Source of the DNA: Chiloscyllium plagiosum
Taxonomy: Eukaryota
DNA length: 33,561 nucleotides
NCBI RefSeq assembly: GCF_004010195.1
Contig: NW_025214611.1
Coordinates: 13,541 to 47,101, forward strand
Direction: 5' to 3'
Shown here piece by piece: positions 3,592 through 33,561 of this stretch. The first letter of the stretch is position 1; each line of letters begins with the position of its first letter. The notes below the pieces were generated by a model. That model searched no databases, was not told where the DNA came from, and saw nothing but the letters and a program-made list of their open reading frames with translations. The translations under genes were made by a program, and so were the position numbers.

Positions 3592-4385
3592 AGCTTAAAA
3601 ATGTGTTGCTGGAAAAGTGCAATAGGTCAGGCAGCATCAAAGGAACAGGAGAATCGACGTTTCGGGTATGAGCCCTTCTTCAGGAATGAGGAGGGTGTGC
3701 CAAGCAGGCTAAGATAAAAGGTAGGGAGGAGGGATTTGGGGGAGGTGCGTTGGGAATACGATAGGTAGAAGGAGGTTAAAGTGAGGGTGATAGGCAGGAG
3801 AGGGAGTGGGGGCGGAGAGGTCGGGAATAAGATTGCAGGTCAAGAAGGCAATGCTGAGTGTGAGGGTTGGGACTGAGAAAAGGTGGGGGGAGGGAAAATG
3901 AGAAAGCTGGAGAAATCTGCATTCATCCCTTGTGGTTGGAGGATTCCTAGGAGGAAGATGAGGCGCATTTCCTCCAGGCGTCGTGTTGCCATGGTCTGGC
4001 GATGGAGGAGGCCAAGGACCTGCATGTCCTTGGCGGAGTGGGAGGGGGAGTTAAAGTGTTCAGCCACGGGGCGGTTGGGTTGGTTGGTGCAGGTGTGCCA
4101 GAGGTGTTCTCTGAAACATTCCGCAAGTAGGTGGCCTGTCTCCCTAATATAGAGGAGGCCACATCGGGTGCTGTGGATGCAGTAAATGATGTGTGTGGAG
4201 GTGCAGGTTAATGTCTGACAGATATGGAAGGATCCCTTGGGGCCTTGGAGGGAAGTGAGGGGGGAGGTGTGGGCGCAAGTTTTGCATTTCTTGTAGTTGC
4301 AGGGGAAGGTGCCAGGAGTGGAGGTTGGGTTGGTGGGTGGTGTGGATCTGATGAGGGAGTCGAGGAGGGAGTGGTCTTTCCGGAT
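3592..4385 (-). mobile_element. Penelope-like element 3' part: GIY-YIG endonuclease remnant plus pLTR with hammerhead (3652-3687)
   Basis: Minus translation CTSTHIIYCIHSTRCGLLYIRETGHLLAECFREH...PVAEHFNSPSHS...LIFLLGILQPQGMN is the Penelope GIY-YIG signature. The downstream sequence matches the pLTR at 276-437. Confidence 0.85.
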
Positions 4386-11139: not shown

Positions 11140-11625
11140 ATTTAAGATGTTTGAGGGAGTGTCGATTAGATAGGCTGTTTATGCCTAGGATAAAGAAATA
11201 GCGAAAGGGTGTAGGCCATAGGGCACTGGAACACAAGGATGAAAACGGCAGACCTGGTAAAGATTCACAGAGAATTAAAGAGGGTGAGAACCCAGGAAGG
11301 ATTTCAACATGAAGATCAACATTCCTGGGTTAGAGAAGGTAAAAGACAGGGAGGGCCAGGGTCTTGGGGGGACATGAATGTGAGCGTGAAAATTGAGAAA
11401 CTGGGAAGGTTTACATTGATAATAAGGCAATGGTGCAATTTGGAAAGGAATACGGGAATAGTAGACGGTGAAGGAGGTTAAAGCAGGCAAGGGCCATGGA
11501 CTGATTTAAACAGGACAATTAGAATTTTGAAACCAAGGTAAAGCCAGAACAGAAGCCAATGTAGGCCAATGTATACTGGGGAGCAAGGGATGTTGGGGCA
11601 TGGTTTGAGATGTGTGGCAAGCTCA
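11140..11625 (-). mobile_element. L2-like LINE fragments
   Basis: ggggccatggactgatttaaacaggacaattagaattttgaaaccaagg...ccaatgtaggcc is the reverse complement of an L2 ORF2 C-terminus (LHWL...FKILIVLFKSVHG). Confidence 0.55.
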
Positions 11626-11644
11626 GTGAGAGCTGCTGATTTAC

Positions 11645-11956
11645 CTGAGCAGATGACTCCAGCATGTTGACATCCAGCACTGTGATTGGCACCGAGTGGG
11701 TTGGCAATGCATTGGTCCAGTGAGTCTTCCGTTCCATTACATCTGACCCCACTGAGCAGGATCTCCCCGCCACCTTGTCCACGATAAGCCCCAGTTATGG
11801 ACTCAGACTTCCCACAGTTCAGCTGTCTGCAGACAATGTCTCCATTGGTGAGATCCCAACCATCGTCACAGACTGTCCCCCAGGTGGACTTGTAAAGGAT
11901 CTCCACTCTTCCTGAGCACCTGCTGTTCACATCGACCAGTCTGACAGGGAAACGTC
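11645..11956 (-). CDS. SRCR domain exon 3 (312 bp, phase 1-1) of a DMBT1/CD163-like scavenger receptor; atypical cysteine pattern
   Basis: Acceptor tgtgtttccctgacag, donor G|gtaaat. Encodes RFPVRLVDVNSRCSGRVEILYKSTWGTVCDDGWDLTNGDIVCRQLNCG...VRCNGTEDSLDQC...HAGVICS with no stop codon. Confidence 0.92.
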
Positions 11957-12278
11957 CTGTCAGGGAAACACAAAGTTAGATTATTCTTCCCCTTTGGTTT
12001 CAATCTCCATAATTTTCCCTTTCCTTCACTAAAGAACAAAATAAGGCCATTCAGGTCTCGAGCAGAACCAGCACATCATTCAGCCCCTTGATCTGGTTAC
12101 ACAGGAACAGAAGGAAGCAGATCCCCTGAAGCCAGTTATACAGGAACTGAAGGGACCCATTACTTCTCCTAATAGATCACTAACTCAGCACTGTCAAGGA
12201 TTCGAGCATAGACCATTGTTATACTACATGACTCAAAATGTTGAAAATCTTTCAGCATAATGCAATATCACTGCTGAC

Positions 12279-12587
12279 CTGAGCAAGTAACTCCAGCATC
12301 CTGACTGTGTGTGCAGTTGTTGATATTCCTCTGCTCTCTTGGGCACTCATTGATGGTGCCCTCGGTCCCAACGCATCGAAAATTATCCAGCCAGATGGGA
12401 TCTTCTCCTGGGCCAAAGCTGCTGTTCACAGACACAGCAACCCCACACCTGAGCTGCCTGCAGACAACTGAGGCATCCATGATATCCCACTCATGGTCAC
12501 AAACAGTGCCCCACGAGGAATTCTTGTAAATTTCAACTCTTCCTGAACACGCATGAAGGCCCTCTTGCAGTCTGGGGGGCAGTGGAC
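12279..12587 (-). CDS. SRCR domain exon 2 (309 bp, phase 1-1), group B (8 Cys)
   Basis: Acceptor gctgcttttccag, donor G|gtcagc. Encodes PLPPRLQEGLHACSGRVEIYKNSSWGTVCDHEWDIMDASVVCRQLRCG...PIWLDNFRCVGTEGTINEC...NNCTHSQDAGVTCS. Confidence 0.95.
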
Positions 12588-12754
12588 CTGGAAAAGCAGC
12601 AATAGAACACATACTTTGTGAACTGAACAAAAAACATACAGAGAGCAGTTATCACATTCAATTCCCTGACCTCAATACTCAGCCTATAAAAGCTGTTCCG
12701 AATTACTTCATCAATCTTCTCCCCCTTTCCTCGACTCTTAAATATCTAAATCTG

Positions 12755-15800: not shown

Positions 15801-15944
15801 AGTTTAACAATTCTGCCAATAGAGTGTGCTCCTCATGATAGAGGTCACAGGATAGAGAACAGGCATTTGTATATGATTGTATTTTCTTCTGTGAGTTTGC
15901 TGTCTTTCAGTGTTGTTTCTAATGCTGCTAAGAAAACGTAGCAG

Positions 15945-16410
15945 CTTCAGAGACACGGACAAAAAAGATTTACAAAATACCTTGCAAGGATTATAATAAA
16001 TGTTACATTGGACAAACAGGCAGAAAACTAGTCACAAGGATACATGAACATCAACTAGTCACAAAAAGACATGACTCACTCTCACTAGTATCTTTACATA
16101 CAGACGAGGAAGGACACCACTTTGACTGGGACAACACATTCATCCTAGGACAATCCAAACAGAGACATGCACAAGAATTCCTAGAAGCACTGCATTCCAA
16201 CCAGAACTCTACCAACAAACACATTGATTTGGACACCATCTAGAAAATCCTGAGAAAAAGAACTGAAATAACATCACCAACCAAAAGAAATCTCAACACA
16301 TAAATAGGAAGCAGAATGTAACACTAGCGCCTCACTAATGATGTTATCTAGTATGGTGACAAAATGTCTGAAACCAAACTTTCCAGCTCAGTGAGCAAAC
16401 TCACATCCAG
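15945..16410 (+). mobile_element. Penelope-like 3' fragment (GIY-YIG plus decayed hammerhead pLTR), second family
   Basis: YIGQTGRKLVTRIHEHQLVTKRHDSLSLVSLHTDEEGHHFDWDNTFILGQ...EFLEALHS, plus a decayed CTAATGA...AAAA-tgtc at ~16335-16370. Homologous to 22200-22515. Confidence 0.85.
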
Positions 16411-20040: not shown

Positions 20041-20084
20041 ATGTGACGATGATATGCATGCTCAATGCGTTAGTGGACTATTAC

Positions 20085-20399
20085 CTGAACACTGAACTCC
20101 AGCATCCTCGTAGTGTTGACAGTTATGCTCACCCCAGTGTGTCGCAACACACTGATCGAGACTTGACTCGGTTCCATCACACAGCACATCATCCAACCAG
20201 ATTGGTCCACTGCCCTGTCCAAAGGATGCTCCAGTGGTGGCCCGGATTGCTCTCCCACAGTTGAGCTGCTGACACACCACCTGTGCATCTTGTAGGTCCC
20301 AGTAATCACTGCAAACTGTTCCCCAAGTGGAGTTGTGAAAAATCGCCACTCTCCCATCACACAAATTGTCTCCATCTTCCAGTCTCACCATTGCTGACT
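20085..20399 (-). CDS. SRCR domain exon 1 in this window (315 bp, phase 1-1), group B (8 Cys)
   Basis: Acceptor tgtttgtttttgtttctag, donor G|gtaata. Encodes [48 protein letters not shown]...[25 protein letters not shown]...[17 protein letters not shown]. Confidence 0.96.
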
Positions 20400-21071
20400 C
20401 TAGAAACAAAAACAAACACAAGCTCAATATCTGCCATTACCAACTCCAAACATCTCCTTGGTATCAATTACGACTCTGCGTTCAATGAGGGGGAAGGAGT
20501 GTCAAGGCTTCAACCCCAAGAGGCTCCCAACCCAGGACAAGTTACTGTTATCACAAATCCTGAGGTAGTAACAGGCAACTTCTGAGGAGAGATACTGACA
20601 GGAAAGTCCAGCTCTAAGGCCTTATGATACTAATTACCATTTTGTTTTTCTGGGCCTGGACATAAAAGAGGGGAGGGAGTGAGCATACACAACAGGGTCA
20701 CAACAAACAATAGGAATCCAGATTGAAAGATCAGTGAGTGTGGTGGAAAGTTCATGTGGCAATTGTAGGGTTGGAGTGAAGGTGAGGCCAGGAAGGAGCC
20801 ACTACACAACAAGTTCCAGAAATCTCCGTTGGCACGGTGCTTCTTTAACTAGGAGATGAACAGATTGAGAGTCATTTTGATCATTAAAGTGTTACAAACT
20901 CATTATAGGGACAGTTAACATTTAAAGAAGAAATTCAAATACACAGAAATTAACCGATTGAACCCTTTTTCACATTTACAAACACAAACAAATTTTGTTA
21001 TATATCAAAAAGACTCAAACAAAGGAAACATAATTAACTTAACACAATGAATTATAAAGTTCTACTTTTTA

Positions 21072-23249: not shown

Positions 23250-24511
23250 TGAATAGCACTACTTCCATCAGTGAGTTTCATGAAATAATTGCAAATAAAA
23301 ACCAATAATTTAAGAAAACTTTGTTAATAATTTTAAAAACATGCTCATAAGCTTACTGAGGCTTTCTTGAGTAAGGGTAAAAATGAGTGCATTAGCTAAT
23401 TTTGAAAAAAAGCCAAAGTGCCCCAACTATGTCAAAAAATAGTAAAAGCATAAAACCAAATAGGCTTAAGTAATACCTAGAAATTATTCAGAAGAACTAC
23501 ATTCAAAAACCATTATGATTTTTCAAACTTGGAAGACAGGAGCTTTCATAGCAAAAAGATCAGTTTAAGATCATCGTAAAGGTTTCCATCCAAGCTTAAA
23601 GAAAGTCTTCACAGTTGAGCTACCAGATTGCACAGCCAAAGAGGCCTCACAAGCTTGTAAAGCCAATTTTGACTTTCCTGTGGCAATCAACATGTTCAGC
23701 TATTTGAGTATTTGAGATGAAGATTTGAGGCAATTTCAGCTGACCAGGAATCCATATTGGTGGAATGCCTGAAATACACACTCTTGCTCTTCAAATTAAT
23801 GTGAGCACTGAGACATACATTTTGTCTCTTGTGTGTGACAGAATAGTATTCTTGAGGTGCTCTGACTTGACTCTCACTTCCCAACCACAGAACAGCACAG
23901 CAAATATTCAATGTATTAAAGGGATATATGGAGAATGAAAATCTTCCCTAGGATTGCACAATTGGATTTTGTACTTATGATACTCCAGCTATGGCAGACC
24001 ACCAGTCAGGCAAAATGAGTTACTTTATCTACTGTTTAGAGTAACTGCATGATTGTCAGGAAACAACAGGCACCTAAAATGAGCACACATCTAGGGGCAG
24101 TATTGGAGTGGCTCACATCAATTGTGAACTACATTAAAGCTCACGACTTTGCCAATGCATGTGAAGACAGAGGATCTGATCATGATGTGTTATTGTATCA
24201 TACTAAGGCCTGGTGGCTGTCAAGAGGAAGAGTACTGCAAATGTGTTTTGTACTGAGAGATCAGTTGCTTGTATTTGCAGTGGACTGCAAAAGAATGTAA
24301 ATGACTCATTTTTCTGTGGCTAAAAGCAATTTACCTTATGATCATGCTACAGACTCTTTGGGAAACAAAAATTAACTGAATACAAATGTGTCAGGAAAGA
24401 ATGATCTCCAACTGAGTGAATGACCCAGAGCATTCCTGATAAAATTGCATTTTGGAAGAGCAATATGTTACCATTGAACTGACTCTCCCCTAACAACATC
24501 TAACAGCATCC
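23250..24511 (+). mobile_element. hAT (Buster/Charlie; ZBED8/SCAND3/FAM200-like) transposase remnant
   Basis: IVNYIKA...ACEDRGSDHDVLLYHTKAWWLSRGRVLQ matches the Buster LL.HTEVRWLSRG motif. Heavily frameshifted; the start boundary is approximate. Confidence 0.75.
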
Positions 24512-25709
24512 ATCGGACACGCCTTGGCGTGCCCATTTGCCACCGGGCGGTGGGGATCCCCAGTGGAGGGCTCTGTACAGGGGAGTCCTCCCTCTTTCTC
24601 TCGGGGATCTGGGGTGGAGGGTGCTGCACGCAGCAGTCCCCTGCAACCACAGATTGCGGTGGTTCACGGACTCCCAGCCCAACTGCTTGTTCTGTGGTGC
24701 TTGGAGTCCATGGACCACGTGTATATTGGGTGTGGGCGTTTGCACTCCCTTTTTGATTTTCTTAAAAACCTTCTCCTCTGCTTTTGGTTGCACTTCAGTC
24801 CCACGCTCCTGATCTTCGGGCACCCGGTACGGAGGAGGAGGTAGGGCAGGTCTGAAGACCTCCTCATGGGTCTGCTCCTGGGCCTGGCCAAACTGGCCAT
24901 AAACAGGTCCAGGCAGCGGGCCGTGGAGGGGGTCGTTAGGGCCGACTGCCTGCCCCTCTTCCGCGGTTACGTTAGAGCCCGGGTGTCTCTGGAGAAGGAG
25001 CATGCGGTCTCCACCAACACCCTGGAGTTGTTCAGGGAGAGAGGGGCGCCGCAGGGAGTGGAGTGCATCATTTCTCCCTCCAACTCTATTTTGATTTAGT
25101 CCCACCTGACCTGCACATCTTTGGACTGTGGGAGGAAACCGGAGCACCCGGACGAAACCCACGCAGACACGGGGAGAACGTGCAAACTCCACACAGTGGG
25201 TCGCCTGAGGCGGGAATTGAACCCGGGTCTCAGGCGCTGTGAGGCAGCAGTGCTAACCACTGTGCCACCGTGCCGCCCACAAAGGAATTACAACCGGTTT
25301 CCTCCCACGCAGACACGAGGAGAATGTGCAAACTCCACACAGACAGTTGCCTGATGCAGGAATTGAACCCGGTTCTCTGGCACTGTGCCACCGTGCTGCC
25401 CATGTACTTTCAGCTTAAACCTGTTGAACTATAATCTGGTGTTGTATAATTTTTAACTTGGTTACTTGCGACAGGCCTCCTCCCAAAGGATATGAAGGGC
25501 AGTGTTTGTCACTGGCCACTCGGATGTTTTCCTATATTCCTGGTGGTGGAAATTGAATAAATATTCGTGCACTTTGTGTCTCTCACTGTGTCTCACACCT
25601 ACACGCACACGCCATGGGTGCTGGGGGAAAAAATAAGCGCTTCCGCAGTTAGGCAGTAGTGTGGGGGTTAAAACAAAAAGAAAAAAAGAAAAAAAAAAGG
25701 GAAAAAAAA
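24512..25709 (+). mobile_element. 5'-truncated Tx1/L1-clade LINE with poly(A) tail and a 10-bp TSD
   Basis: ORF2 C-terminus WRVLHAAVPCN...CLFCG..ESMDHVYIGC (zf-RVT/CCHC)...LLLGLAKLAI. A-rich tail at 25670-25709. TSD aacagcatcc at 24502-24511 and 25710-25719; the empty site is visible in the inverted copy near 27190-27205. Confidence 0.9.
25097..25402 (-). mobile_element. HE1/V-SINE-like copy (25097-25278) plus a second partial copy (25303-25402) within the Tx1 3' region
   Basis: Reverse complement gggcggcacggtggcacagtggttagcactgctgcctcacagcgcc...gggttcaattccc...gtggagtttgcacgttctccccgtgtctgcgtgggtttc. Confidence 0.88.
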
Positions 25710-26033
25710 AACAGCATCCTAGTCATGTGATGACCAATCACTGCAGGTGTCTGCATTTTCACTTTGTAGCAATTCCCTCCAGTTGGAGAACAAAGACTTA
25801 GATTTGTAGGCAGCTAATTAAAATTTCAAGCAGTGCCATTTTACAGAAAATAACTTCAGAGTTTCTTCTAGATTAGCTTAATTGCAAAGTGGTTTATGTA
25901 GATAAGTGGGTAAGGGATGTGCTCAGATGAGGTAGGCAGCTAGAGGTGTGTATAGATGGGGTAAATGGGTAAAAGGATTGGATGGTGATTCAGTGTTGAA
26001 TCAAGCTCATGGGGAGCGGATGTCAGAGGATAT

Positions 26034-26068
26034 CACCTGATGAAGGAGCGTCGCTCCGAAAGCTAGTA
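26034..26068 (+). ncRNA. Minimal hammerhead ribozyme motif in a Penelope-type pLTR fragment (26032-26120), third family
   Basis: cac-CTGATGA-a-ggagc-gtc-gctcc-GAAA-gc-TA-gta: intact core, 5-bp stem II, palindromic AGCT stem III. Confidence 0.7.
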
Positions 26069-26880
26069 CTTCCAATTAAACCTGTTGGACTATAACTTGG
26101 TGTTGTGTGATTTTCAACTTATACATGAGTATATAGGGTAACAATGACAATTTCTCCCTATGTTCACATGAGTTGATAAACAGATGGGTGAGACTTAATG
26201 TAATACACAATTAATACAACCTACTCCAATACTGCACCTAGCTCTGTGCTCCATTACTTAGTTGCTAGTTGTTTCCTGAGATCCATGTTGTTACTGCAAA
26301 CAGCAGGTGATGTATGACAGTTCTGACTTGTAACCTGCCATAGATAGGGCATTATTTAGTACACCATCCAGCTGTAAAATTCCATGGATATCTTTGTCCT
26401 CTCTGCTCCCTTATTGTCCTCTATTTGCTACATTGCTCCAGATATTTGGGGTCTGGACATGCTCCAAATTTCACATCCTGGCCTCTCAGAAACCCTGACT
26501 CAGGATTGGTGTGAGAAATGTAAACTTCCAATGCATGTTTCCCAGTTTGCTATTATCCTACGCAAATGGTTCTGACTCTTGAGTTAGAGTTGAAGACTTG
26601 GGAAGGATGTTGTTTACCTACATTGGTTGTTACCTGCAGAATGCTAATGTAAGATGATGTGGTTTATTCATCCAACTGTCTGCCTGACCCCCTGAATCAC
26701 CTTGAGCCTCCAACTACCCAAACCTTATGACATCCCATCATCTTCTGACAATCCCTCAACCCTTTGACTCTCTGACCCTCTTCTCATCCAACCCTTTATC
26801 CCAACTGACACTCTGCATGTTCCTTGACCATTCAAGGTCCCCTGACTCTCTGAAGCCTGAGCGTCCACCTGCTCCTATTG

Positions 26881-27280
26881 ATCCTCTGACATCCACTTCC
26901 CATGAGCTTGATTCAACACTGAATCACCACCCAATCCTTTTACCCATTTACCCCATCTATACACACCTCTTAGCTGCCTACCTCAGCTGAGCATATCCCT
27001 TACCCACTTATCTACATAAACCACTTTGCAATTAAGCTAATCTAGAAGAAACTCTGAAGTTATTTTCTGTAAAATGGCACTGCTTGAAATTTTAATTAGC
27101 TGCCTACAAATCTAAGTCTTTGTTCTCCAACTGGAGGGAATTGCTACAAAGTGAAAATGCAGACACCTGCAGTGATTGGTCATCACATGACTAGGTTGCT
27201 GTTAGATGTTGTTAGGGGAGAGTCAATTCAATGGTAACGTATTGCCCTTCCAAAATGCAATTTTCTCAGGAATGCCCTGG
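26881..27280 (-). repeat. ~400-bp inverted duplicate of 24425-24511 plus 25720-26031
   Basis: Near-identical reverse complement, e.g. 27010-27194 versus 25718-25900. This copy lacks the Tx1 insertion. Confidence 0.95.
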
Positions 27281-27333
27281 TGTTGTGTGATTTCTAACTT
27301 TGTACACCCCAGTCCAACACCGGCATCTCCAAA

Positions 27334-28711
27334 TCATGTATAAGTTGAGTTTTGAAGACCATGTTTTTGAGCTGAAATTAGGGGGTCGACTTATACACGA
27401 GGTATAGTTTTCGAGAGGATGAAATTCATGCTTGGCATAAGTAAAAAAATAGACAAACAAAAGCTAGATCTTGATATAAAATATTAAGCAATAATATCTC
27501 GAATATTAGCAAATTTAAACAAAGTAAAATGGACCTAGCTTGTACAAAATGCTAAAACAATTATAATACTTTCATACTATATAGGTAATATCTACGGTGG
27601 TTGAGTATAGGACACATGGTGAAGAAAAACGTTTGTACTCAAGTCTTGATTGTCACCGGCATCTCATCTTTGAGTAGTAACATGTTTTTAAGCACTAGCA
27701 AGAGAAAGGCAATCACAAACAAGTTAATATCCATATGGTCATCTAAAACGGGAAATTTACCTTCCACGCAGCACCCGGTCCCTGAACGTTCCCTGTAATA
27801 AGTTCGTGCTGGTAAACCACAGGTAACTCAAAACGCAGAAACTGACTCCGCGGTTTACTGTAATTCTGAAAACCTGGATTGGATCGTGTTATGGACTAGG
27901 CCAGACCACTCAAACCATTCTCGAGCAGGCAACCCAGACCATAACTTTGCAATTTGTTTCGGTAAGTGTACAGTGAAAGTTACCCAGAGTAAGTTAGCTA
28001 GGTTGACTACTAGGTTTTAAAACAGACTAAAACTTTATTCACAAAGTTACACAATGAAGCATAAAGAACCCCGACAGAACTCAGTCTGTCCAAATTAGAC
28101 TTAATTATGCTGTTCCAAATATACACAACAGTTCCAATAAGCAAATCCCCTTTCAAACACAGTAAAAGAAAAAGGTGCAGCTGCTTACAGGTTGAAGCAA
28201 GAAGGGCAAAAACAAAGAGAGAGCCTGTTTTCACACAGCTCACTGTTGAACTCCCAACTAGTTTTGGACTGAACTGCTCAGCTAGAGAGCTGACCACACC
28301 TCTTTCGTTATACAGGCCACTTCTAAAACATGACCACTTTGACCTGAAGTCTCATCTGTTACATATAAACAAAAAGGCCTCTCAATACCTTTAATCTCTG
28401 TACCAAACCAGTCTAACTGGCACTGGGAGCGTTTTATGACCCCTCTAAAAAAAACCAAGGACACAATATCCTTGAGAAAAGGGACCAGCGTTGTGACAAT
28501 CATGATGGCTGATGGACTGGAAGACCTGGATCGAAGCGGGTCCGGCCAGCAGACTGGAAGGCCAGAGGGGAGTGCAGTGGGCAGGCACAGTGATTCATAA
28601 ATGTTGATCTGTAACTGTGAAGAACTAGGGTTGAGTTATACATGAGGTATATGGAAAATACAAGAGGTTGTCTTGTGTACGAGGTCAACATATACACAGG
28701 TATATACGGTA
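27334..28711. mobile_element. Non-autonomous Tc1/mariner-pogo-like DNA transposon; its left terminus is displaced and inverted at 26114-26140, and it contains a solo LTR
   Basis: Right end ...aacatatacacaggtatatacgg-TA. The matching terminus acttatacatgagtatataggg-TA is at 26117-26140. Internal gtcgacttatacacgag-type subterminal repeats occur at ~27385 and ~28630. Confidence 0.65.
27887..28498 (-). mobile_element. Solo LTR (probably Gypsy-type), 612 bp, related to 13536-14158
   Basis: tgttat...gtgaca ends, near-TSD atcg/atca, minus-strand AATAAA at ~28033-28038, and a shared end motif ggtctggcct..tccataaca. Confidence 0.75.
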
Positions 28712-32185: not shown

Positions 32186-32913
32186 AACCTGAGACTGTTA
32201 TCCAGCCACCATGTCTGCTGGTGTCTGAGGGTTCAGCTAGAATTGGATTATGTGCTCTGTAATACAGTAAATCCCAAGCTGCTCCATACCCAGGGGAGTA
32301 GGGGGAGCGGTGTGGAAGCAGAGGCGGGGGGGCAGGGGGTTGGGAGGATGTGTATTCTAAGCCATGCTGCTGAGACCTCCCTTCAGTTTGAACTGACAGC
32401 AAAGCTGAAGCATGGAGATGAAAGCATTGACCTGCCAGTCTAGATTATCCCAGCCTTTCTTCTCATGACATCTCAGCAGCAGCCATGCTGCGGTGCCGGG
32501 GGTGGGGATAGGGAAGGTCAGCTAGTTCCTTGTTTTCCATTGCTTTTGCTTCATTACCCAACATCCCAGCGGAGGCTCTGGGGAGATGTGCTACAAGATT
32601 TCACTTTCATTTTCAATCTGTAAGCCCTGTAGCTGTCGACCTTCTGTCGCGCTGAGTAACAAGATGTAATCTGGCTTGTCTTTGAACACAGGATCCATGG
32701 CAATCGCTCCTCAATGCCTCTCATTCAGCCTGACAACCAAGAGGCAGACGATGAGATGACAGTGATATTACCCACAGCCCATCGAGCAACGTGTTCATCC
32801 TGTATGGTTATTACAAAGGATAGAGAACAGATCAAATCTCATTCAAACGGTTTTGATAGACTAAATAAGGAAAGAATATTATTGCTGACGGGAATGTTGG
32901 TAACCAGACAACG

Positions 32914-33112
32914 TCGAGTCAGAAATCACATGACACCAGGTTATAGGCCAACAGATTTATTTGAAATCACAAACTTTCAGAGATTCACCTGATGGGGGAG
33001 GGGGGCATTCCGAAAGTTTGTGATTTCAAATAAACCTGTTGGACTATAACCTGGTGTTGTGCGACATGTGACTTTGTCCAGCTCAGTCCAACACTGACAT
33101 CTCCACGTCATG
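32914..33112 (+). mobile_element. ~200-bp Penelope-type fold-back mini-element with a decayed hammerhead, inserted in a CR1 fragment
   Basis: Inverted arms 32927-32978 and 33011-33062; CTGATG...tccGAAA; gacaacg duplicated at 32907-32913 and 33113-33119; same family as 26032-26120 and 27277-27338. Confidence 0.8.
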
Positions 33113-33561
33113 GACAACGCAGAGTTAAGGTTATTGGCAAACAAACCGGATGAAAAGAAACAGAGATTTCTTTTAGCCAGTAAGTTGTTGTGATGTGGAA
33201 CACATAAGGTGTAGTAGCAGACTCTTCGCAATTCGCAAATGATAATCAGATAAATATTTGTATTTATAATTGTGAGGCCAGTGGGGAAAGAATGCTGGGG
33301 GGGCAGGTGTGGGGGAGAGCAGCTCTTTCTGAGAGGCAGCATTGATGGGTGGAATGGCCTCTGTCTGTGTGTTGTGATTTTTCAAATGCTCACAACAAAA
33401 AATGAAGAATATTCAATCATGGGGAAGAAACCAGTCTCGATAAAGGCTGAAGGTTTTTTCAGATGTTCATATTGATTATAAATCCCCAGTGAGCTGCACT
33501 TGGACCTACCACAAAAGATTCCACTTTGATTGCTTATTTACCTTATCTCCTGGTTGTTAAG

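Follow-up and report, generated by a model that had tools for sequence, protein, structure and literature searches.

Pieces of one pLTR at both ends of an inverted and partly duplicated segment, consistent with a mis-sealed Penelope-like insertion in Chiloscyllium plagiosum

Here we describe a single locus in one assembled contig window of Chiloscyllium plagiosum (33,561 nucleotides of NW_025214611.1, hereafter the window), where an inverted stretch of DNA is bounded on both sides by pieces of the pseudo-long terminal repeat (pLTR) of a Penelope-like retroelement. Comparison of the window with itself gave the block order L-A-pLTR1-[t15' B A']-pLTR2-t15-T, in which L is the left flank, A a segment present in two copies, T a transposon remnant and t15 a short repeat that is found inverted as t15'. 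The blocks and the features within them are the following.

23438..24479, plus strand: decayed hAT-type transposase in left flank L, crossing the L/A boundary (24424/24425) into A (tblastn)
24425..24511, plus strand: distal 87 bp of A, left copy, 93% to inverted 27194-27280
24512..25719, plus strand: composite insertion in left A, resembling a long interspersed element (LINE-like), with an A-rich tail and a 10-bp target duplication; pieces resembling short interspersed elements (SINE-like) and a third pLTR piece lie inside
25720..26031, plus strand: proximal 312 bp of A, the final ~155 bp forming the first half of a G-rich tract, 97.8% to inverted 26881-27203
26032..26120, plus strand: pLTR1, tailless, from the hammerhead 5' edge to the inner end (aactt), 70/90 identical to positions 2-91 of the pLTR at 32984-33112
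26037..26067, plus strand: predicted minimal hammerhead, with CTGATGA, one unpaired base, helix II, GAAA and a palindromic AGCT (pattern scan)
26114..26128, minus strand: t15', inverted copy of a putative 15-bp target-site duplication (TSD), an exact inverted match to 27334-27348
26129..26140, minus strand: outer 10 bp of T's left terminal repeat plus flanking TA, apparently removed by the inversion (terminal-repeat comparison)
26129..26880, minus strand: B, inverted segment in a single copy, with the other half of the G-rich tract at 26880-26673 and a small hAT remnant at 26388-26188
26881..27280, minus strand: A', second and inverted copy of A, lacking the later insertion and starting in mid-transposase (self-comparison; match of protein P0001)
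27276..27338, plus strand: pLTR2, 5'-truncated, with a 38-nt tail (27301-27338), 50/62 identical from 27277 to positions 67-129 of the pLTR at 32.9 kb
27334..27348, plus strand: t15, the putative TSD at its original place, an exact inverted match to 26114-26128
27334..28711, plus strand: T, remnant of a DNA transposon, non-coding and flanked by TA, whose left terminal repeat is missing its first 10 bp, with short open stretches only in six frames

The inverted block extends from 26114 to 27280 (1167 bp), of which 400 bp are duplicated. A preliminary description of this stretch had given the same layout, with an inversion of ~1.16 kb and a duplication of ~400 bp; self-comparison, a check of the dot-plot type, bears out the blocks at its coordinates as well as both sizes. 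Its block borders hold overall, with two corrections: pLTR2 starts at 27276 and not 27277 if the cctgg is included, and B proper begins past the 15-mer. The junctions are labelled J1 (A/pLTR1, 26031/26032), J2 (26114-26128), J3 (27276-27280) and J4 (27334-27348).

An ancestral order L-A-B'-T, where B' is B turned back, is well supported by three older features in the window that are cut by the junctions, and it upholds the A-B'-T order that had been proposed before. The first feature is the hAT fossil, which was searched by tblastn with 150 relatives, the L/A boundary being scored as spanned where a high-scoring segment pair (HSP) covered at least 15 nt on either side. HSPs of 24 of the 150 relatives span the boundary, covering just ~8-12 codons on the A side. 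Residues 83-456 of the relative P0001 are colinear over the fossil, with a further 11/14 match at 24438-24479, and its residues 443-493 match the inverted A at 27267-27142 (E 1.6e-5) across the empty site of the later insertion, a match given by one protein of the 150; of the 14 HSPs near J3, the remaining 13 are weak (E 0.01 or worse) and were disregarded. For the Pfam domain Dimer_Tnp_hAT, P0007 passes the cut-off, P0001 falls just below it and P0011 has no match. Since the fossil crosses L/A and continues in the inverted A, the L-A junction is old and A' begins in mid-gene. The hAT pieces at 23438-24479 and 26388-26188 are 72% alike over 204 bp and run in the same direction once B is turned back.

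The second feature is the G-rich tract: the final ~155 bp of A belong to it, as do the ~210 bp that open reversed B, and pLTR1 lacks it. Its G skew is 0.69 in the A part (0.54-0.83 per 52 bp) and 0.49 in the reversed-B part, versus 0.09 in pLTR1; the tract was chosen by eye, and the background reaches the two values in 0 of 3452 and in 0.8% of 3434 overlapping windows, respectively. As the tract runs through A into reversed B, the A-B' junction is old. The third feature is the left terminal repeat of T. Reversed B ends in TA, the outer 10 bp of the terminal repeat and the 15-mer, and T starts at the 15-mer; reversed 26114-26140 matches T's right end (28685-28711) in 22 of 27 positions, which confirms that the left end of B is, as first suggested, the inverted terminus of the transposon at 27334. 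Because the end of reversed B supplies the 10 bp missing from T, the B'-T junction is old. An unrelated copy of this terminal repeat at the B end was considered and rejected, since the B end supplies exactly T's missing bases and stops at the pLTR.

The 15-mer extends exactly over 26114-26128 and 27334-27348, as the preliminary description had it, occurs once per strand in the window and touches the right end of each pLTR piece. None of 3000 random anchor pairs (with a slack of 7 nt to either side) gave an inverted match longer than 10 nt. The 15-mer is best read as the TSD of a Penelope insertion, split between the junctions, with an exact inverted copy adjoining both pLTR pieces. Microhomology to the pLTR, already remarked on at three junctions, is indeed present at J2 (aactt, 5 nt), J3 and J4, with changes in the bases: J4 reads tcatg (5 nt), and J3 reads ccag, 4 nt common to both A copies, the 5 nt of cctgg being shared with the inverted copy only. 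J1 is itself a short palindrome, gatatc (26029-26034); homology of 3 bases with the end of the ancestral A lies there two bases out of register, which suggests slippage at joining. The locus does not show the L1 hallmarks, poly(A) and the TTTT/A endonuclease site, with poly(A) found at neither J2 nor J4, so that the event works like an L1 event but is not one.

The pieces at the two junctions are overlapping parts, 2-91 and 67-129, of one pLTR, and presumably stem from a single RNA. Both lie on the plus strand and share 25 nt of element sequence with three differences, one of which is a target-derived base. The hammerhead that had been recognized in pLTR1 is predicted by the pattern scan too, but Rfam gave no match to it or to anything else across the whole window. 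Minimal hammerheads with an unpaired base before helix II and a palindromic helix III have been described by Cervera and de la Pena (PMC4209133). Folded as a monomer, the region recovers helix II alone, as expected for a minimal motif. A 28-base pLTR motif had no matches among metagenome contigs. An insertion of a related pLTR in the same window was used as control:

32907..33127, no strand assigned: control insertion with a tailless inverted arm (32917-32981), a tailed direct arm (32985-33112) and a degenerate target duplication of ~15 bp

The flanks of this control match in 11 of 13 positions in the core and 12 of 19 in register, whereas six shifted registers gave 3-5 of 19. Measured along the 129 nt of the control pLTR, pLTR1 spans positions 2-91, pLTR2 67-129, the inverted arm of the control 26-90 and the third pLTR piece 37-91; thus, the three tailless pieces stop at one inner site (position 90-91) and the two tailed ones at an outer site (129), 38 nt further, with pLTR1 at the inner end and pLTR2 at the outer end of the tail. 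The tail is found on one arm only, and its 38 nt fall inside the 30-40-bp range of endonuclease-bearing (EN+) Penelope-like elements. An inverted 5'-truncated arm with a short target duplication is seen directly at 32.9 kb, and at the rearranged locus only after undoing the inversion: when 26032-27280 is flipped back and one A removed, the order becomes TSD, inverted tailless pLTR, tailed pLTR and TSD, with the 15-mer as the duplication. The third piece (25404-25459), which lies in the later insertion near the SINE-like pieces, stops at the inner start site; it has no tailed partner in the window and may represent another split or remodelled insertion.

The copies of A (24425-24511 plus 25720-26031 against the reverse complement of 26881-27280) differ by 11 substitutions and one gap, hence at 12 of 400 columns, a divergence of 2.8% (95% interval 1.4-4.9%). 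The 1.2-kb insertion in the left copy, provisionally labelled Tx1 in the preliminary description, is flanked by its own 10-bp target duplication (24502-24511 and 25710-25719), and it postdates the duplication of A since the inverted copy retains the empty site. Its three open reading frames (ORFs) have no match in Pfam. The A copies do not differ evenly along their length: 6 of 87 distal positions are affected versus 6 of 313 proximal ones (Fisher P 0.027), hence the 2.8% is unsafe as a clock. Conversion between still-adjacent inverted arms is a possible cause of the clustering of differences in the 87 bp that the later insertion severed.

We consider it probable that one Penelope-like insertion primed both target strands, and that its two complementary DNA (cDNA) ends joined upstream host DNA and not each other. 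A causal role of such an insertion had been proposed from the start and, like the ancestral order, is supported, the window supplying three independent markers. With the 15-mer as target duplication and the pLTR pieces at two canonical ends, two separately primed cDNAs would be implied. The two pieces would have the same orientation because the inverted arm was re-inverted together with its flank.

The end product, the order L-A-B'-T and the positions where the pLTR pieces end can be read directly, and from these we infer the following steps. The endonuclease of the element would cut both target strands ~15 nt apart within the terminal repeat of T, upon which each 3' end would anneal to the pLTR RNA by ~5 bases and be extended. 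The outer start would give the first cDNA, the tailed pLTR2, and the inner start, 38 nt upstream, the second, the tailless pLTR1, which would extend to the 5' edge of the hammerhead. Normally the two cDNAs would be joined together, and the resulting insertion would have an inverted arm and direct 15-bp repeats on its two sides, like the one at 32.9 kb. Here the left end would have been remodelled first: after resection, the pLTR1 cDNA would fold back on its own strand ~0.77 kb upstream, at the right end of A. Fill-in would follow; a nick 400 bp further on, where A begins on the left, would open the hairpin with strand displacement, and the freed end would join the pLTR2 cDNA through ccag. This one-cut fold-back route yields the observed product base for base. 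The fold-back is the simplest route, but the identical product would result if both cDNA ends captured a break across A with a stagger of 400 nt, and the two cannot be told apart. In vitro, the protein of a lizard Penelope-like element is reported to cleave both strands of its target and to extend them, with two RNA start sites that bound a tail of 30-40 bp (PMC11167929); the 38-nt gap between the pLTR ends fits that tail.

Several points weigh against this explanation. J1 has no clear microhomology, with at most 2-3 uncertain bases, though fold-back priming should leave homology there. The lizard study reports initiation without homology to the cut DNA (PMC11167929), versus 5 nt of homology at both priming junctions here. 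The window has no Penelope ORF linked to this pLTR family, hence the Penelope label draws on the hammerhead, the tail and the arm layout; a GIY-YIG remnant at 15932-16240 is weak (E 0.001, below the cut-off) and is followed by a terminal sequence that differs from this pLTR family. The control is a single copy, from another subfamily (~80% identical) and with a decayed duplication. The case itself is one assembled locus, its uninverted ancestral state being a reconstruction. Finally, a finished palindromic insertion that broke at its centre later would leave much the same ends.

This last course of events, in two steps, seems unlikely to us but has the most in its favour among the alternatives. 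A normal palindromic pLTR insertion with its 15-bp duplication would be broken at the centre by cruciform or hairpin cleavage, an arm would be chewed back, and repair of a staggered break across A would invert the segment. The final sequence would be identical, pLTR1 does stop where the centre of the palindrome would be, and inversions by staggered breaks are reported to be common in Drosophila, where the inverted duplications that come with them measure 46 bp to 1.9 kb (PMC1885836). However, it requires a second, independent event that is centred on an insert of only ~150-200 bp, and a hairpin formed by the present arms would have stems of just 25 bp. Nor do the 15-mers, identical versus the 2.8% between the A copies, give a sign of an older insertion, a comparison for which 15 bp are almost powerless.

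The preliminary description had explained the locus by template switching of one cDNA onto neighbouring DNA: a single nascent strand would copy 62 nt of pLTR RNA, pass to genomic A, B' and the 15-mer, return to the RNA for pLTR1 and finally be sealed to the end of A. The path can indeed be spelled by a single unbroken strand, the homology at the switches being ccag and aactt, and capture of host DNA between pLTRs has been reported (PMC3846280). Yet copying would have to continue for 15 nt beyond the nick that interrupts the strand's own template, for which a sister chromatid is needed, and the return to the RNA would have to fall precisely on the canonical inner site of normal second arms. Moreover, the original B' must be deleted, since B is single-copy. 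Given the two pLTR pieces at two canonical ends, such a path is less economical, and we regard it as quite unlikely.

An assembly artefact, by a fold-back read or a haplotype join, is very unlikely. Penelope elements in inverted arrangement are a known difficulty for assemblies (PMC8557442), and a gap of 659 N is found elsewhere in the window, but the A copies differ at the 12 columns given above and only one of them has the 1.2-kb insertion together with its target duplication, and an artefact would put neither pLTR ends at canonical sites nor a 15-bp repeat at both. Among 24 read runs, 18 hold part of the region, with word shares of 0.46-0.67 in organism A (two studies) and of 0.20-0.36 in organisms B and C; these shares may be due to repeats and were not used as evidence. 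Ectopic recombination between two independent pLTR insertions, which pLTR pieces with 25 nt in common at both breakpoints might suggest, is extremely unlikely and was rejected: there is one short target duplication only, both outer-type ends (J2 and J4) come from that single site, and an inversion requires copies in opposite orientation while both pieces are on the plus strand.

A single mis-sealed insertion with two primed ends has close parallels in L1. Twin priming reportedly goes back to Ostertag and Kazazian in 2001. Mendez-Dorantes and collaborators report L1 cases with inverted duplications, as well as one in which 917 bp at the reciprocal end are inverted while the TSD is retained, and propose resection and self-annealing (10.1101/2024.12.14.628481; earlier version PMC11702581). 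As in those cases, a sub-kb to kb inversion lies beside the insertion at our locus, the target duplication is kept in inverted form and a model of the same type applies. In contrast to what is reported there, the element is Penelope-like, cDNA is present at both ends and the inversion comes together with a 400-bp inverted duplication; besides, the L1 events are somatic or experimental, whereas the event described here is old and fixed or inherited. Zumalave and collaborators report reciprocal inversions and translocations that L1 causes through twin priming: single twin-primed insertions have their parts at two junctions, and an inversion of 2.67 Mb carries duplications of 18 and 419 bp (10.1101/2024.08.27.596794). 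Our locus shares with these the split insertion and the unequal flanking duplications of an inversion, here 15 and 400 bp; the 18/419-bp case, however, involved two L1 insertions and 2.67 Mb, and twin priming is described as occasional for L1 whereas two starts look routine for this pLTR. L1 cDNA intermediates are also reported to recombine with distant breaks (PMC13526784).

In the canonical EN+ Penelope-like unit, short duplications flank two pLTRs, one inverted and tailless, the other tailed, according to Arkhipova and collaborators (PMC3846280) and Craig and collaborators (PMC8557442). The locus resembles the unit described in these two reports and by Frangieh and collaborators (PMC11167929) in its tailless and tailed pLTR, its tail within 30-40 bp, its short duplication and its minimal hammerhead; it differs in that the arms are unjoined and point in the same direction, with inverted host DNA between them, and in that the duplication is inverted. 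The staggered-break inversions of Ranz and collaborators (PMC1885836) have inverted duplications of comparable size at both breakpoints, but the model as presented there does without retroelement cDNA at the junctions, whereas here one stagger bears the marks of a retroelement target site. In Drosophila virilis, Penelope has been linked to inversions as well (Evgen'ev, PMC3681739), there by cytological coincidence of breakpoints and not by a mechanism at sequence level, and an indirect role of Penelope is reported elsewhere (PMC6278893). A full-text literature search, with most subscription papers outside its reach, found no base-level Penelope flank inversion, and the accessible text of 10.64898/2026.07.22.740005 contained nothing of the kind. 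Insertion-coupled flank inversion thus appears to be undescribed at sequence level for Penelope-like elements, its L1 analogue being known already.

The origin of the inverted arm and the one-sided tail of Penelope-like elements has been called unresolved (PMC8557442, PMC11167929). Arms that lie on separate junctions, each at one start site and beside one copy of the duplication, are the footprint expected of two cDNAs made from two cut strands. The locus would extend insertion-coupled local inversion, for which L1 in tumours and in cultured cells provides base-level cases, to another class of retroelement and to an inherited genome, and it offers a simple signature that can be counted genome-wide. 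As a tentative generalization, which we think rather less probable than the reading of the locus itself, Penelope-like elements might routinely make a staggered cut of ~15 nt and prime on both of its strands, from two fixed sites in the RNA, mis-joining of the cDNA-tipped ends then being a recurrent source of kb-sized germline inversions and inverted duplications in cartilaginous fishes, where stubs are very abundant. The signature would then be a tailless and a tailed pLTR in the same direction with an inverted target duplication, and the locus would be a split intermediate, an in vivo sign that the arms are separate cDNAs.

The locus reads as a real and unusually legible fossil of a rearrangement; it is one dead site built of repeats, with no evident function. 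It lies 4-7 kb from the nearest SRCR exon, within or next to a gene of the scavenger-receptor type. Three SRCR-domain exons were found on the minus strand at 11478-12648 and 20062-20436, the window being repeat-dense otherwise; with its SRCR exons and dense repeats it looks like shark DNA. Inside T, a segment of ~610 bp (27887-28497) with a TG start, a CA end and a near-match 4-bp flank resembles a solo LTR. A second hammerhead-bearing family is present in inverted arms at 1-419 and 3595-4385, with hammerhead patterns at 72 on the minus and 348 on the plus strand. Here the segment 226-436 is repeated in inverted form at 3595-3805, and a 33-bp tandem array begins between the two.

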